From positions 141,507-205,506 of the forward strand of contig CAVRAO010000002.1 in the NCBI GenBank assembly GCA_963719035.1: a stretch of 64,000 bases of DNA, given 5' to 3'. The position numbers were made by a program, and so were the translations under genes. Every line of letters begins with the position of its first letter. Position 1 is the first letter of the stretch. This DNA is from Methanobacteriota archaeon. Lineage in GTDB: Archaea > Halobacteriota > Bog-38 > Methanoflorentales > Methanoflorentaceae. The notes under the pieces are model-generated. The model worked only from the letters and a program-made list of their open reading frames with translations. It searched no databases and was not told where the DNA came from. This document shows positions 6,036 through 12,248 of the stretch, one piece after another.

Positions 6036-6081
6036 CTACTAACGTCTTTAAAATAGCTTCTGACGGCTTGCGCACACGCGC

Positions 6082-6190
6082 AGAAAGCTTTAATATCAAT
6101 CCCCAGCGTAGTAAGCTGTGCTGCGTCAAGCGGCCTTTACGCTTGTGCATGCCCGGGTAGTGTAGCGGCCAATCATGGAGCCCTGTCGAG
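6082..6190 (+). repeat. Direct repeat, left copy (attL-like): tRNA-Asp promoter plus 5' half of the tRNA up to the anticodon loop (tRNA fragment 6151-6190)
   Basis: agaaagctttaatatcaat...gcccgggtagtgtagcggccaatcatggagccctgtcgag matches 11727-11834 at ~95% (about 5 mismatches and 1 indel). It diverges immediately after the anticodon-loop core. Confidence 0.8.
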
Positions 6191-6215
6191 AGCCCCTCCT
6201 AATTTTGAGCCCCTT

Positions 6216-7334
6216 TTGACTACACCAGGCATTTGCGGAACTCTTAGTCCTTTTCACTTCGATTTCGTGAGTGATAAGATACGCACCATATATACTACCG
6301 ATTCAGGGAACGGTCACAGTCTTGATTCACTTCAATTGACGTTTTCGCGGGATCAACTTATCAATTACAAGAAATGGCGTATAGAAGGTCTTGATCGGAA
6401 AAGCAGCAATTGGATGAACAAGGCCGCTGAGATTGTTTGGCACGGCACGCATGGCGTAATCTGTAAGCTAACAATGGACGCGGTGCGTGACGTTGCTTTA
6501 ACCAAATACACGTGCGTTTATTCAAAACGTAAAGTGCTATGTTTTGCTAAAGGTCTCCTCAAGTATCTTGCCAAAACCACCTTCGACACTCGCTTTCAGG
6601 CATTTGAACTCTTCTTGGAGATGCCTAAGGTCCTCAAAATTCGTAAGCATGTTACAAGCCGCATTGTGACTAAGGAAGACATTGAAAATGTGCTAAAAGC
6701 GATTGAACAGGCGTTTAGCATCGGGCGTATTGATAACGCTCACTATCTAAACTACAAAGCGATAGTGTTCTTTGGCGCGTTTACGGGTCAGCGACCTTTA
6801 GCGACAATAGCAAGATTAACTGCGCGACAATTTGAGGAAGCGGTGAAAATGAAGAAACCGGTTGTTGATGTTCTCCCGTGGCAAGATAAGATTCGCATGC
6901 AGCATTATTGCCCTCTCCACCCGCAAGTCGTTGAGGCTGTAGAACCTGCGCTGGAAGTTAGATTCGATGACGAGCGTGTTTTTGAGCAACTGTCCTTTCA
7001 AGAGTGGCTTAAGTACACAGACATCCGGCTATTGCAAGGAGGCGCTCGCATTGTCAATGGAGACCTGAGGAAATTTGCAGAGCAGCAATCCGACGTACTG
7101 CAGTGGGATCAATCAAATAAGAACTACATACTAACCCACGGTGTCAGCGGGGTCGATTGGCGTTTTTACAAGCATCCGTTGCCTAAGATCGTGTATGACG
7201 TATATATGCAGTATTGGAAAGAAGTCGAGCTTTCGTGTTTAAAGTGGCCATGCTTGTTCCCGCACAACCGGCAAAAATACCATACATACCGTCATCGGCA
7301 AAAGCAAACGTTAGCCTGTGGGCTTCTTTCCTAA
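6216..7334 (+). CDS. int: tyrosine-recombinase-like integrase (putative; TTG start)
   Basis: 372 aa directly abutting attL. The C-terminal region carries candidate catalytic residues (GQRPLATIARLTARQ; LTHGVSGVDWRFY with a terminal Tyr). The assignment is mainly by position next to the tRNA att site, with only weak motif support. Confidence 0.5.
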   Translation: MTTPGICGTLSPFHFDFVSDKIRTIYTTDSGNGHSLDSLQLTFSRDQLINYKKWRIEGLDRKSSNWMNKAAEIVWHGTHGVICKLTMDAVRDVALTKYTCVYSKRKVLCFAKGLLKYLAKTTFDTRFQAFELFLEMPKVLKIRKHVTSRIVTKEDIENVLKAIEQAFSIGRIDNAHYLNYKAIVFFGAFTGQRPLATIARLTARQFEEAVKMKKPVVDVLPWQDKIRMQHYCPLHPQVVEAVEPALEVRFDDERVFEQLSFQEWLKYTDIRLLQGGARIVNGDLRKFAEQQSDVLQWDQSNKNYILTHGVSGVDWRFYKHPLPKIVYDVYMQYWKEVELSCLKWPCLFPHNRQKYHTYRHRQKQTLACGLLS

Positions 7335-7581
7335 AAATAAAAAGCCCACGGCCTTATCAAAAACGTATGTTGACGACGATATTGCCCCATGAACCCACCT
7401 GCCTGCTGAGACGATGGTAGTACTTTAAACTTAAAATTTGTGATAGCTTTTAGCAGGCGCCTATTAGCGGTCAATTCTGACCTCCGCCTCGCTGAGGCAA
7501 TCGTAAATTCATCGTTACTTTTTGCTCTACTTTTTTTGTTCTGCGAGAATGTGGAGCACAGGCTATCCCTCACTAAGCGCA

Positions 7582-8292
7582 TCAAGAGACGTGTCCAATC
7601 GGGATAATGTAAAGCGGCTGCTGGTCTGGAGGGGTCTCTAACACTTCGCGCACCATCGAGTCATCAAAGGCGCCGATCGGAACCGCTCCCAATCCCAACG
7701 ATGTACACTCGAGCAACACGTTTTGCGCTGCGTGACCAGCCTCGAGGTGGACGTAGCGCTCAGCACGTTCACCGTACTTCGTTGCGGCCCGCTCGTAGAC
7801 CCCCATAATCACAAGTTTTAACGGTGCTTGTCGTACGGCGTCCTGATTCAAAGCGGCTTTTGTCAGGTTCTCCTGCACATCCGCTGATCTGATTTTCCCG
7901 AGGCTGTGATTTAGGGGGTTGTAATGGTACACTCCTGTTACGTTCACGACATAGACTTCGAGCGGATACAGCGCGCCCGCAGACGGCACCGTTCTGAATC
8001 CTTGAGTGCTCGTGATTCCTTGAGCGGCCCAAACGAGCTGTGAGAGCTCGCTTAGTGAGATGTCAGCGTCAGTGTACTCGCGTACCGACCGCCGCTGTTG
8101 GAACGTTTCCTCTAATGACATGTTTCCTTTCAGGACTGGGTCGGGAAGCTTGATGACGTCGATGACAGCGAGGTCATGTGATACAGGCACAACTGCATCG
8201 TCGCTCTTTTGCGAGCTCAACGCCATCCACCCTATAAGAGCGGAAGCGATCACCGCAATGACCAGCGCAACGGCCAAGATTTTTTTTCGCAT
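7582..8292 (-). CDS. SagB-type dehydrogenase/nitroreductase-family protein with N-terminal signal/TM anchor
   Basis: 236 aa. N-terminus MRKKILAVALVIAVIASALIGWMALS is a hydrophobic signal/anchor. The nitroreductase-fold motifs are present (RRSVREY, ALYPLEVYVV, HLEAGHAAQNVLLECTSLGLGAVPIGAFDD). Confidence 0.7.
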   Translation of the reverse strand: MRKKILAVALVIAVIASALIGWMALSSQKSDDAVVPVSHDLAVIDVIKLPDPVLKGNMSLEETFQQRRSVREYTDADISLSELSQLVWAAQGITSTQGFRTVPSAGALYPLEVYVVNVTGVYHYNPLNHSLGKIRSADVQENLTKAALNQDAVRQAPLKLVIMGVYERAATKYGERAERYVHLEAGHAAQNVLLECTSLGLGAVPIGAFDDSMVREVLETPPDQQPLYIIPIGHVS

Positions 8293-8787
8293 CGACGTAC
8301 TCTCACGCTACACGCTTCACTTGAGAATAAGGACCTCCGCATAGTATAGAATTTATGCTTTAGCACGGCTAAGAAGAGGTGCAAAATTAGCACAAGTTAG
8401 CCCGAGTTATCCTAAACAGGTATGCAAAGCTGATAGGCAAGAACATTCATCCTCACACATTCTGGCATAAGTTTGCCATCAATAGCGTAAGGCACGGATT
8501 TGTAATACGCAGACCACCTTATGCCATTATGCTCTTCTTTCCTGGGAGCTAAGGATGTGCCTGACGACAGAACCAAATTGCCAATTAAGCCCTGGCACAT
8601 CCTCCCCCTTTGTCTAAGCAAAGACTGTGCTGACGAATTTGCGGCTGAATTTCATGAAAGAGCCAATATGTGACGGATAAGGTAGTAAGAGCAGATAAAG
8701 CTTTTTAACGACGTAAAAAGGAAAAGGAGCGCGAAACGCTCCATATTAGGAACCATTGCCGGCTTCAGTGCAGCTAAGGGTTGTGAC

Positions 8788-9081: not shown

Positions 9082-9744
9082 TTTGATGTAGCCTCCATTT
9101 TTTTAGTAGTGAGCGTTTTGAGCGATCAGACCATTAGCGTTTGCGCTGTATTGCGCGAGAAATGTGTGCAAGAGCCGCCGTCGGAAGTGATAGAACGAGA
9201 TAAGAGCCAAGAGGTAATCGCTTCTAACTACTTCCACACCGCGCTTCCTAATCGTTTACACCCCATGTTTTACTACACTAATGCGTGCGCGACGATTGTC
9301 TCCAGGTCGATGAGCTCCTATTGCAGCTGGCGGACTACAAGAACGACTACGCGGACGTAGCCGCAGCAAAACTTTTAAAGAAGTGCTCTACCAGTTGGAA
9401 AGCCTATCGATATCTACAGGACCGCGTTCACGATGCCTGGCTGCCTGATAACGCCCGGCAGCAGGTTCGACAGATTATCAAAAAGATACAGGTGCAGATA
9501 CACCAGCAGCGCGAATACAGCTGGACGTATCAACAGCCGTGAGCGTGCAAAATAAAAGTTTTGCTAGTTTGTTAGCCATAAAACTACACGCAACAAACTG
9601 AGAGGAAGGTTCTTCAAGCAAGTATCAGCGACGAAGGCTAGGGGCACACTAAAAATTTGAGGTAAATACCCTAGTTTGGCCAAGAGTATATAAACGGCCC
9701 CTTGCCTTCGAACGTGGTTGTTATCATACGATATTTTAATACGC

Positions 9745-9762
9745 GTGACAAGTTTTTGTCAC
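9745..9762. promoter_or_regulatory. Perfect palindrome GTGACAA-gttt-TTGTCAC (operator-like site) in an intergenic region of the element
   Basis: Read directly from the sequence: 7-bp inverted-repeat arms with a 4-nt spacer, ~210 bp upstream of the small ORF at 9972. Confidence 0.3.
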
Positions 9763-9971
9763 ACATCAACGCCCGTGAAAAGTGGGCGCCCCTCTCGAAG
9801 GGTAAAGTCGACATGAAAAACTAAGGTGTAACGCTTTAAAAAATGTCTGGACCGTAGTCGCTTTTTGAAATAACGCCCAGTGTGACGTTATTATCGTCGA
9901 CAGAAAAAACCGATCACGATATTATGAGGCGTGATTCATGTACAAAGTACTGAAAACGTAGGAGGGAACAA

Positions 9972-10133
9972 ATGATTGAGAAGGGACTGATCTTAACCGG
10001 CAGCGATGCGGACGTATTGAGCAGTGCGCTTTCAGAAGTGAAAACGATAGTCTATAAAAAGGCAGGAACTCAATTAGATGATAGCCAAGCGCTCGATGCG
10101 CTCGTTTCGTATTTCCTTAATGCCGAAAGATAG
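9972..10133 (+). CDS. small hypothetical protein (53 aa)
   Basis: Strong Shine-Dalgarno GGAGGG 6 nt upstream of the ATG; MIEKGLILTGSDADVLSSALSEVKTIVYKKAGTQLDDSQALDALVSYFLNAER. Below the ORF-track size cut-off. Confidence 0.45.
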   Translation: MIEKGLILTGSDADVLSSALSEVKTIVYKKAGTQLDDSQALDALVSYFLNAER

Positions 10134-10314
10134 ACAAAAAGAGAAGTTTCACTTGTATTTTAGCCCCTTACGTAAGCGCCTGGTGCTCGGCACGATTATT
10201 GAGGGGACAGTCGTAAAGCCTGATCGTGGCCAGGAACTGCTCGATCTAAGTTAGATAGCTGGGTCATCTATGGAGTGGCATTACCTAAAAGCACGAAGTA
10301 AATGGTGACAAAAA

Positions 10315-11114: not shown

Positions 11115-11507
11115 ATGGATAGTGAGGGGTCAAGAAGGAAATTCGAAAATATCGGCGATTACATCGCTACGTTTCCTAAGAATGTTCAGCACACGCTCAG
11201 GGAGCTGAGGAGTGCAATCAAAGAATCGGCGCCTGAAGCTGAAGAAACCATTAGTTATGGAATGCCCACCTTCAAGCTCAATGGTAACTTAGTACATTTT
11301 GCCGCCTATGAGAAGCATATCGGGTTCTATCCAACCCCTTCCGCCATTCTTGCTTTCAAGGAGAAATTATCCATTTATAAGCAATCAAAAGGAGCGGTTC
11401 AATTTCCAATCGATGGGCCGATTCCGTTAGATATTGTAAGGGAGATGGTCAGGTTCAGAGTAAAAGAAAATCTGACAAAAGGTGCAAGAAGGAGAAAAAA
11501 GGACTGA
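11115..11507 (+). CDS. DUF1801 (YdhG-like) domain protein
   Basis: ISYGMPTFKLNGNLVHFAAYEKHIGFYP is the DUF1801 core. The ORF opens at 10977, but the domain-sized protein (130 aa) starts at the Met at 11115. Confidence 0.6.
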   Translation: MDSEGSRRKFENIGDYIATFPKNVQHTLRELRSAIKESAPEAEETISYGMPTFKLNGNLVHFAAYEKHIGFYPTPSAILAFKEKLSIYKQSKGAVQFPIDGPIPLDIVREMVRFRVKENLTKGARRRKKD

Positions 11508-11588
11508 GACTGAGCTGACTTGTTCAAAAACGCTACTTTTATCCTCCGCTGCACTTTAACTAGAACTAACTAAACAAGAGGTGGAATA

Positions 11589-11726
11589 ATGACAGAAGAC
11601 GATAAGAACGAAATCATAAAGTGCACTGTCTCGTGCCCCGAGTGTGGTGCTGAGATGGTCTGCACGCACGAAGACCCAAAACACGAAGAGAAGCACAGGT
11701 GTGAAAAAGGCCACGTGTGGACCTGA
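11589..11726 (+). CDS. small zinc-ribbon protein (45 aa)
   Basis: GAGGTGG Shine-Dalgarno sequence upstream. MTEDDKNEIIKCTVSCPECGAEMVCTHEDPKHEEKHRCEKGHVWT has CxxC plus C/H ligands. Its stop abuts the first base of the right direct repeat. Confidence 0.45.
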   Translation: MTEDDKNEIIKCTVSCPECGAEMVCTHEDPKHEEKHRCEKGHVWT

Positions 11727-11834
11727 AGAAAGCTTTAATATCAATACACAGCTAGTAAGCTGTGCTGCGTCAAGCGGCCATTACGCTTGTGCATGCCCGG
11801 GTAGTGTAGCGGCCTATCATGGAGCCCTGTCGAG
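11727..11834 (+). repeat. Direct repeat, right copy (attR-like): tRNA-Asp promoter plus 5' half of the intact tRNA
   Basis: Matches 6082-6190 at ~95%. Confidence 0.8.
11734..11741 (+). promoter_or_regulatory. TATA-like box (TTTAATAT) upstream of tRNA-Asp, included in both direct-repeat copies
   Basis: An A/T octamer ~55 nt upstream of the tRNA 5' end. It is conserved in the left repeat copy (6089-6096). Confidence 0.3.
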
Positions 11835-11867
11835 GCTCCGACTCGGGTTCAAATCCCGACTCGGGCG
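11795..11867 (+). tRNA. tRNA-Asp (anticodon GTC)
   Basis: Manual fold. Acceptor stem GCCCGGG/CTCGGGC (one G-U pair). Anticodon stem GAGCC/GGCTC with loop CTGTCGA (GTC at positions 34-36). T-arm TCGGG-TTCAAAT-CCCGA. Discriminator G. No encoded CCA. Confidence 0.85.
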
Positions 11868-12248
11868 CTCCTTTTTTGTAATAGAGTAATCTGCAGTGTT
11901 ATTTGCTGCTAGGAATTCTAAACTGCGCTTTTCTATGTCGCTATCCTTCTTATTGCCCTTTATTTCTCGTGGTTCGCCTTTAGCGTCGCGTATATCCAAA
12001 GCTAACCTTAAAGCGCCTATCGTTTCGTCAGCACGCCTTATAATCTCGTCTTTACCCTCTAACACCGCACGCAGCCGTATTATTTCAGTATTATCCTGCT
12101 TATCAAGTGCGACAATACGACCTTCGACATAAGCAGTTAAAGCTTCAATCGTTAGGGCCGAACGGGTTACGTTATTGCTGTTCGCTCGTTCAATAACGGC
12201 TTTTAACAGCTCGGCAGGTAATGTAATAGACATACGGGATAGCGTCAT
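11817..12248 (-). CDS. ribbon-helix-helix (CopG-like) DNA-binding protein with coiled-coil tail
   Basis: N-terminal MSITLPAELLKAVIERANSNNVTRSALTIEAL is a ribbon-helix-helix signature. The C-terminal end of the ORF overlaps the 3' half of tRNA-Asp on the opposite strand, so the true C-terminus is uncertain. Confidence 0.45.
   Translation of the reverse strand: MTLSRMSITLPAELLKAVIERANSNNVTRSALTIEALTAYVEGRIVALDKQDNTEIIRLRAVLEGKDEIIRRADETIGALRLALDIRDAKGEPREIKGNKKDSDIEKRSLEFLAANNTADYSITKKERPSRDLNPSRSLDRAP

Follow-up and report, generated by a model that had tools for sequence, protein, structure and literature searches.

The nitroreductase-fold gene in the window (the whole 64,000-nucleotide stretch of archaeal DNA that was analysed) most probably encodes a stand-alone FMN dehydrogenase of the SagB clade that is tethered to the membrane, faces outward, acts on a diffusible substrate and is carried as a passenger in an integrated element; we put the probability of this reading at about 0.62. 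Within its family the gene is unexceptional, and what it adds is mainly that such genes can ride archaeal integrative elements. Of more interest than the locus is the family itself, which combines a conserved domain, a near-constant Sec/lipoprotein leader, the lack of a fixed partner and horizontal movement.

The open reading frame, the N terminus and the motif strings pointed out in the initial annotation are all present in the reverse-strand translation (Table 1). The protein matches PF00881 (Nitroreductase) in Pfam with an E value of 7e-37 over residues 66-234, and it scores 125.1 bits against TIGR03605 (SagB-family peptide dehydrogenase domain; cut-off 78.4), covering model positions 1-170 of 173. 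Because of these two matches, the frame is not a chance open reading frame. TIGR03605 is the sole NCBIfam model whose cut-off the product exceeds. NfsA, BluB, FbiB and the other nitroreductase-superfamily NCBIfam models all score far under their own cut-offs, and the protein falls outside the oxygen-insensitive NAD(P)H nitroreductases of the NfsA/NfsB type (NF008033, 39.7 bits against a cut-off of 223). Since the TIGR03605 cut-off is passed and the protein carries both the PSAGALYP loop and the Lys-Tyr pair K172-Y173, we agree with its earlier placement as a SagB-type enzyme rather than a generic nitroreductase. Judged by its sequence, it belongs to an annotated ("SagB/ThcOx family dehydrogenase") but uncharacterised family.

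Table 1. Features of the nitroreductase-fold gene, its product and the surrounding element, with positions in the window.
Feature	Position	Strand	Remarks
SagB-family nitroreductase-fold gene, 236 aa	7582..8292	-	ATG start; stop codon 7582-7584
Putative N-terminal signal-anchor, or Sec signal peptide with possible A-L-S cleavage site, residues 1-26	8215..8292	-	
Flexible tether from anchor to domain, residues 27-44	8161..8214	-	pLDDT <50 at residues 28-37
Catalytic nitroreductase/SagB domain, residues 45-236	7585..8160	-	Starts at invariant LPxP; PDB sequence matches span residues 45-234
RRSVR, residues 67-71	8080..8094	-	R67, R68, S69 and R71 invariant
PSAGALYP loop, residues 103-110	7963..7986	-	Invariant in 26-member alignment
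K172-Y173	7774..7779	-	Aligns with the catalytic Lys-Tyr of azoline dehydrogenases
Duplicated 815-bp segment (ORF plus 104 bp past the stop codon)	7478..8292	.	Second copy at G000:C8:1-374 (L103) and G000:C2:1-441 (L102)
372-aa ORF, probable integrase fragment	6216..7334	+	Adjoins attL; convergent with the nitroreductase gene
attL direct repeat	6082..6190	+	tRNA-Asp upstream region and 5' part of the tRNA
attR direct repeat	11727..11834	+	Runs into the intact tRNA-Asp(GTC) gene, 11795-11868

Relatives of the protein are numerous. A search of a 5.8-billion-protein collection gave more than 7,400 significant matches among the 8,000 candidates scored, almost all of the best 120 being 220-245 aa in length. 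With one genome taken per species, a pattern scan detected a relative in at least 573 species, and 80 loci were retained. The motif RRSxR occurs in 78 of the 80 loci and in 119 of the 120 top protein clusters, PSAGALYP occurs in 74 and 116, respectively, and KYG is likewise near-universal in the family. In an alignment of 26 diverse members, 52 columns are invariant, K172-Y173 among them, and an HMMER alignment places this pair exactly on the KY of ThcOx. In McbC, Lys201-Tyr202 is the proton-abstracting catalytic pair of azoline dehydrogenases (PMC6395948). Binding of FMN by the window protein is predicted from the conservation of RRSxR and from relatives that were, according to their titles, crystallised as FMN proteins. 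From general knowledge of the nitroreductase fold, we take RRSVR to be the FMN-phosphate-binding motif.

An AlphaFold2 model built from the 26 diverse homologues (mean pLDDT 87) has residues 2-26 as a single helix (pLDDT ~90), residues 28-37 as a disordered segment and the domain from residue 45 onward. The folds closest to this model are those of four nitroreductase-fold proteins from structural genomics, 3hj9, 8cqs (BT_0217), 3hoi (BF3017) and 3eo7, followed by the azoline oxidases ThcOx, BmdC and McbC. Reut_A1228 (3hj9), BT_0217 and BF3017, the best fold matches (TM 0.79-0.88 on the target), resemble the window protein in their size, their single domain and their LPxP starting strand, and the titles of 8cqs and 3hoi describe FMN-dependent proteins. 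Their sequence identity is only 29-34%, however, and they have no KY pair and carry PSA-MNxxD or PSPYGE in place of PSAGALYP. The best sequence match is Ava_2154 (3eo7; Anabaena, with plant homologues; E 2e-34), whose domain 1 contains PSAGGLYP, but which is a 511-aa tandem SagB-like pseudo-dimer with RY or QY for KY and with no leader visible in the crystallised chain. The azoline dehydrogenases SagB, McbC, ThcOx/PatG-ox and BmdC share with the window protein the TIGR03605 domain, the nitroreductase fold with FMN (Foldseek E values from 1e-12 to 1e-11) and the Lys-Tyr pair, and ThcOx also shares the PSAGxLYP loop; sequence identity is only 21-24%. Unlike them, the window protein has an export/anchor leader and is without an RRE/peptide clamp, a YcaO/cyclodehydratase, an NRPS partner or a precursor.

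The leader is well defined. Residues 1-26 consist of MRKK followed by 22-23 apolar residues, that is, a Sec-type n-region and a membrane-insertable hydrophobic segment. Residues 5-23, which lie inside a 23-residue uncharged run, have a dG(app) of -2.65 kcal/mol on the Hessa scale, and no further segment of the 236-aa protein falls under +2. The initial annotation had named, as something that would refute it, a better start at a downstream Met that removes this segment. Neither M23 nor M58 is conserved (T, I or V and V or L, respectively, in orthologues), so a downstream start cannot remove the leader; nine close orthologues begin with MRK, MRT or MRR at the equivalent position, orthologues carry the leader, and the second copy of the gene described below begins at the same ATG. 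A downstream start is thereby ruled out, and the hydrophobic N terminus is real. The sequence of the tether is not conserved and is S/T/P/A-rich in bacterial orthologues.

A codon comparison was made with L005, an orthologue from another metagenome-assembled genome (MAG) that is 96% identical to the window protein. Over residues 1-57 the two genes differ in five codons, all of them non-synonymous, compared with 13 synonymous and 4 non-synonymous differences over the domain. All of the changes in the leader region retain the hydrophobicity or charge pattern, four of the five being hydrophobic-for-hydrophobic or similar swaps. This is the pattern that would be expected if selection acted on the physical character of the leader and not on its sequence.

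Similar leaders are found throughout the family. A hydrophobic segment precedes LPxP in 71 of the 80 species-level loci and in 104 of the 120 top protein clusters (~88% of ~200), and a Tat-like motif is seen in just 2 of 175 leader-bearing homologues; on these counts, predicted export or anchoring by a Sec-type leader is the family norm. In 30 of the 71 loci and 54 of the 104 clusters, the leader terminates in a lipobox-like Cys, after which comes a tether rich in T, P and S, and the archaeal members simply have a transmembrane helix where bacterial members use a lipid anchor. About 5-10% of orthologues are leaderless, with genuine examples at L057, L076 and L087. An exported or anchored SagB-type protein without partners had been called an unusual combination, which is not borne out at the level of the family, given these counts and a stand-alone context that is normal as well. 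In the literature that we searched, exported SagB-like proteins that stand alone are nowhere described, and the puzzle that the family presents is apparently undescribed in searchable papers.

The stand-alone context emerged when the open reading frames of the 80 loci were called and clustered all against all. Apart from the gene itself and its antisense frames, no family occurs in more than 8 of the 80 loci, which rules out a conserved operon partner; the conserved neighbourhood of homologues, for which a check had been proposed, was not found. The two largest non-self clusters are antisense frames of the SagB-like gene. Among the neighbours in the 80 loci, there is no partner or redox donor and no conserved transporter. 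The sole recurrent immediate neighbours are heterogeneous radical SAM enzymes resembling PFL-activase/AmmeMemoRadiSam, in 8 of the 80 loci, all bacterial. These loci (L025, L027, L032, L035, L041, L066, L069 and L083) belong to five phyla, and the radical SAM gene lies within ~0.5 kb of the SagB-like gene and is often divergent; the one at L066 is a full TIGR04337 member (629 bits). Nothing comparable lies near the window gene.

SnoaL_3-domain proteins adjoin orthologues in two genomes of the same genus (L107:10190-10846 and L108:7107-7799) and have in common a helical N-terminal extension of ~95 aa that is conserved. The window contains none of them; they are without a leader and look like local synteny only, and they were rejected as partners.

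The absence of a RiPP partner, reported in the initial annotation for the vicinity of the gene, was borne out. There is no YcaO gene in the 64-kb window and no YcaO cluster among the neighbours of the 80 loci; no small open reading frame that could be a precursor is a conserved neighbour in these loci, and the flanking intergenic frames show no conservation as genes. The only YcaO of the host assembly (2.19 Mb in 13 contigs, 91% complete) lies 127 kb away from the gene, with TfuA directly after it. This pair is followed by a HycI-like hydrogenase maturation protease (G000:C2:274356-278291, L006) and lies ~23 kb from mcrA (C2:299859-300236, L112). The arrangement is presumably the McrA thioglycine (thioamidation) system and not an azoline-forming one. 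As the single YcaO is TfuA-paired near mcrA, it is ruled out as a distal partner, and the same pairing near mcrA identifies the host as a methanogen or methanotroph of the Halobacteriota/Methanomicrobia group. The product of the gene comprises leader, tether and catalytic domain only, with no RRE or recognition domain. Because the sole YcaO is TfuA-paired and no such domain is present, a RiPP role is very unlikely. For genome mining, a TIGR03605 match with a leader and without a YcaO is not evidence of an azole RiPP cluster.

In the mechanism that we propose, a single N-terminal helix (N-in, C-out) would fix the enzyme to the outside of the cytoplasmic membrane, and the 18-residue flexible tether would link this helix to the catalytic domain. 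The topology is predicted from the hydrophobicity of the leader, the positive-inside rule and the analogy with lipobox-bearing orthologues. The domain probably forms a nitroreductase-fold homodimer with FMN at the interface, where RRSxR would bind the phosphate. Its chemistry is probably that of an azoline dehydrogenase, in which Lys172 would activate Tyr173 for proton abstraction and hydride would pass to N5 of FMN. The substrate is most likely a diffusible environmental compound, either a small molecule or a peptide, and not a cognate RiPP precursor or an envelope protein, because there is no leader-recognition domain, YcaO or conserved neighbour and because leaderless orthologues exist.

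Export raises the matter of the cofactor. The N terminus, MRKK, does not correspond to the Tat motif S/T-R-R-x-F-L-K, and in an FMN protein without this motif, cofactor loading must follow export; Sec would export the protein in an unfolded state, and it would pick up its FMN on the outside. To our knowledge, post-export FMN loading of Tat-less flavoproteins is rare. Precedents for post-export flavin loading without Tat are Shewanella FccA, with the FAD exporter Bfe, and the ApbE-flavinylated extracytoplasmic proteins, but their folds are unrelated to that of the window protein, and no exporter gene is linked here. By inspection, the target motif of ApbE-type covalent flavinylation (S/T-G-A-S/T) is absent from the window protein, and this route was ruled out. 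If the domain truly works outside the cell, the questions that follow are how a non-covalently bound FMN is loaded once Sec has exported the protein and which extracellular reactions anaerobes carry out with an active site of the SagB type. Counting against an outside-only role are the leaderless orthologues named above, in which the chemistry would have no need of an outside location; the host, an anaerobe carrying mcrA, counts against an outward-facing redox enzyme, as does the failure to identify an extracytoplasmic electron donor or acceptor.

Extended to all its members, the same mechanism would make the family an unrecognised class of extracytoplasmic flavoenzymes, exported unfolded by Sec, loaded with FMN outside the cell and performing Lys-Tyr dehydrogenation independently of RiPPs. 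Such enzymes might dehydrogenate, and so aromatise or detoxify, diffusible heterocyclic or peptide compounds of the environment. This generalisation applies to a family present in hundreds of species and more than 20 phyla, among them CPR bacteria and several lineages of archaea; it is tentative, and we regard it as possible rather than probable.

Two alternatives concern where the catalytic domain resides. If the leader were a Sec signal peptide cleaved after A24-L25-S26, the result would be a soluble enzyme under the S-layer or in the medium. The n-region is positively charged, as this would require, and most close orthologues have small residues at -3/-1 (A-L-S), as in GWIALS, GWVALS and GWTAFS. 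The apolar run, however, is 20-24 residues long in every archaeal orthologue; such a length would be great for a cleaved h-region and favours an uncleaved signal-anchor over cleavage after A-L-S(26). Two orthologues have N at -1, and bacterial orthologues stay membrane-attached through the lipobox, suggesting that tethering matters. On balance, we consider a cleaved, soluble form unlikely. The domain could instead lie on the cytoplasmic side of a membrane anchor and use FMN and NAD(P)H at the inner face, an arrangement in keeping with the lack of a Tat motif despite the cofactor and with the presence, within the family at 55-60% identity, of leaderless and hence cytoplasmic orthologues. Here the flank charges (+3 for MRKK on the N side, -1 for ALSSQKSDD on the C side) favour the opposite orientation, N-in/C-out, and the lipoprotein-type leaders of bacterial members, with their Cys and T/P/S-rich tether, are export signals; an inward-facing domain is in our view distinctly improbable.

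The remaining alternatives concern what the protein does. An exported flavin-binding protein, not an enzyme, might serve, for example, to capture or store extracellular FMN or riboflavin, and the conserved FMN-phosphate motif, the predicted outside location and the failure to find a partner or redox donor would all suit it. Cofactor binding alone hardly calls for the degree of constraint observed, as K172-Y173 and ~50 other positions are invariant across phyla, and a transporter is not among the conserved neighbours; we regard a pure flavin binder as a long shot. Still less weight, indeed almost none, goes to a RiPP azoline dehydrogenase acting in trans with a distal YcaO and precursor. TIGR03605 membership and the retained KY motif are what such an enzyme would show, but in a genome that is 91% complete the only YcaO shares an operon with TfuA close to mcrA, the protein, which is predicted to lie outside the cell, lacks both an RRE and an N-terminal recognition domain, and no YcaO is found at the 80 loci. 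Among these readings, we prefer the outward-facing, membrane-tethered dehydrogenase with a diffusible substrate.

The distribution of the family points to movement between lineages. It spans more than 20 bacterial and archaeal phyla at domain identities of 45-70%, and the 80 retained loci, at 43-72% identity, include Chloroflexota, Acidobacteriota, Desulfobacterota, Bacteroidota, Omnitrophota, CPR phyla, Planctomycetota and Nitrospirota as well as at least six archaeal lineages. A maximum-likelihood tree built from 82 domains intersperses archaeal rows with bacterial ones; for example, Thermococci pair with Parcubacteria, Brockarchaeota fall within Dehalococcoidia and Aenigmatarchaeota pair with Aerophobota, each on starred branches. 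The clade that includes the window protein consists of seven Methanomicrobia/Halobacteriota sequences and adjoins bacterial groups. On the sequence evidence, the gene is accessory and horizontally mobile, and the family has been exchanged between bacteria and archaea.

The window gene itself had been described as cargo of a mobile element. Direct repeats derived from tRNA-Asp, 98% and 92% identical in two blocks, bracket a 5.6-kb element that contains the gene, and its position inside an integrated element is thereby confirmed. It does not look like characteristic cargo of this type of element, as only L005, among the other MAGs, has the same element context. Five other archaeal orthologues (67-88% identity) lie in unrelated contexts without integrase, GYD or DUF1801 neighbours, and an orthologue is present in only 4 of the 17 same-genus genomes searched. 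The GC content of the gene (0.544) is close to that of the chromosomal flank (0.532) and ~10 points above that of the rest of the element (0.447). Given its GC content, its contexts in relatives, its patchy distribution and its second copy, we take the gene to be a passenger in the element and not a characteristic element gene. The GC content of the whole window is 0.472, compared with 0.53 in its first 6 kb.

The 372-aa open reading frame next to attL has no Pfam, PHROG, NCBIfam or PDB sequence match, so that an integrase assignment by HMM or PDB sequence failed; its designation as a probable integrase fragment comes from homologue names and a length pattern. It has 637 homologues, forming an archaeal family, many of which are named 'integrase' by JGI and some of which look intact at 403-443 aa. 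Its frame is open through attL, from position 6057, and this open frame and the longer homologues fit an integrase gene that holds its own att site and was truncated on integration. Joining the element ends (6057-7334 and 11400-11834) in silico gave no clean longer integrase frame with the small Zn-ribbon ORF included; a 1-nt indel between the two copies of the repeat keeps a simple junction from restoring a longer frame. An element shared with another genome (G018, L001) was ruled out: the neighbour in that genome, of 371 aa, has no relationship to the 372-aa ORF, and a small orf9285-like ORF alone is common to the two.

The second copy of the gene extends across the ends at which contigs C8 and C2 abut and differs from the window copy by 4 mismatches in 815 bp. 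The homology stops abruptly at the ATG and, at the other end, at position 7478 by a GCCTC-GCT-GAGGC hairpin. This copy lies outside the element and is flanked on one side by a C_GCAxxG_C_C protein and a PNPOx-like protein. It may represent a true duplication of gene size or a strain variant that was merged into the MAG, or else an assembly join cut at a later stage.

Directly upstream of the ATG in the window, ~45 nt at positions 8293-8337 (GGTCC..TTCTCAAGTGA.GCGTGTAGCG..AGAGT.CGT.G) are conserved upstream of position 8465 in L107, the locus of an 88%-identical orthologue in another genome and a different context, and are missing from the second copy. This region may be a promoter or a 5' leader element. 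Many short pieces of the element (such as ~7100-7230 and 9230-10200) have counterparts with 70-86% identity on contigs C8, C11 and C12, which suggests that the host genome contains several related elements.
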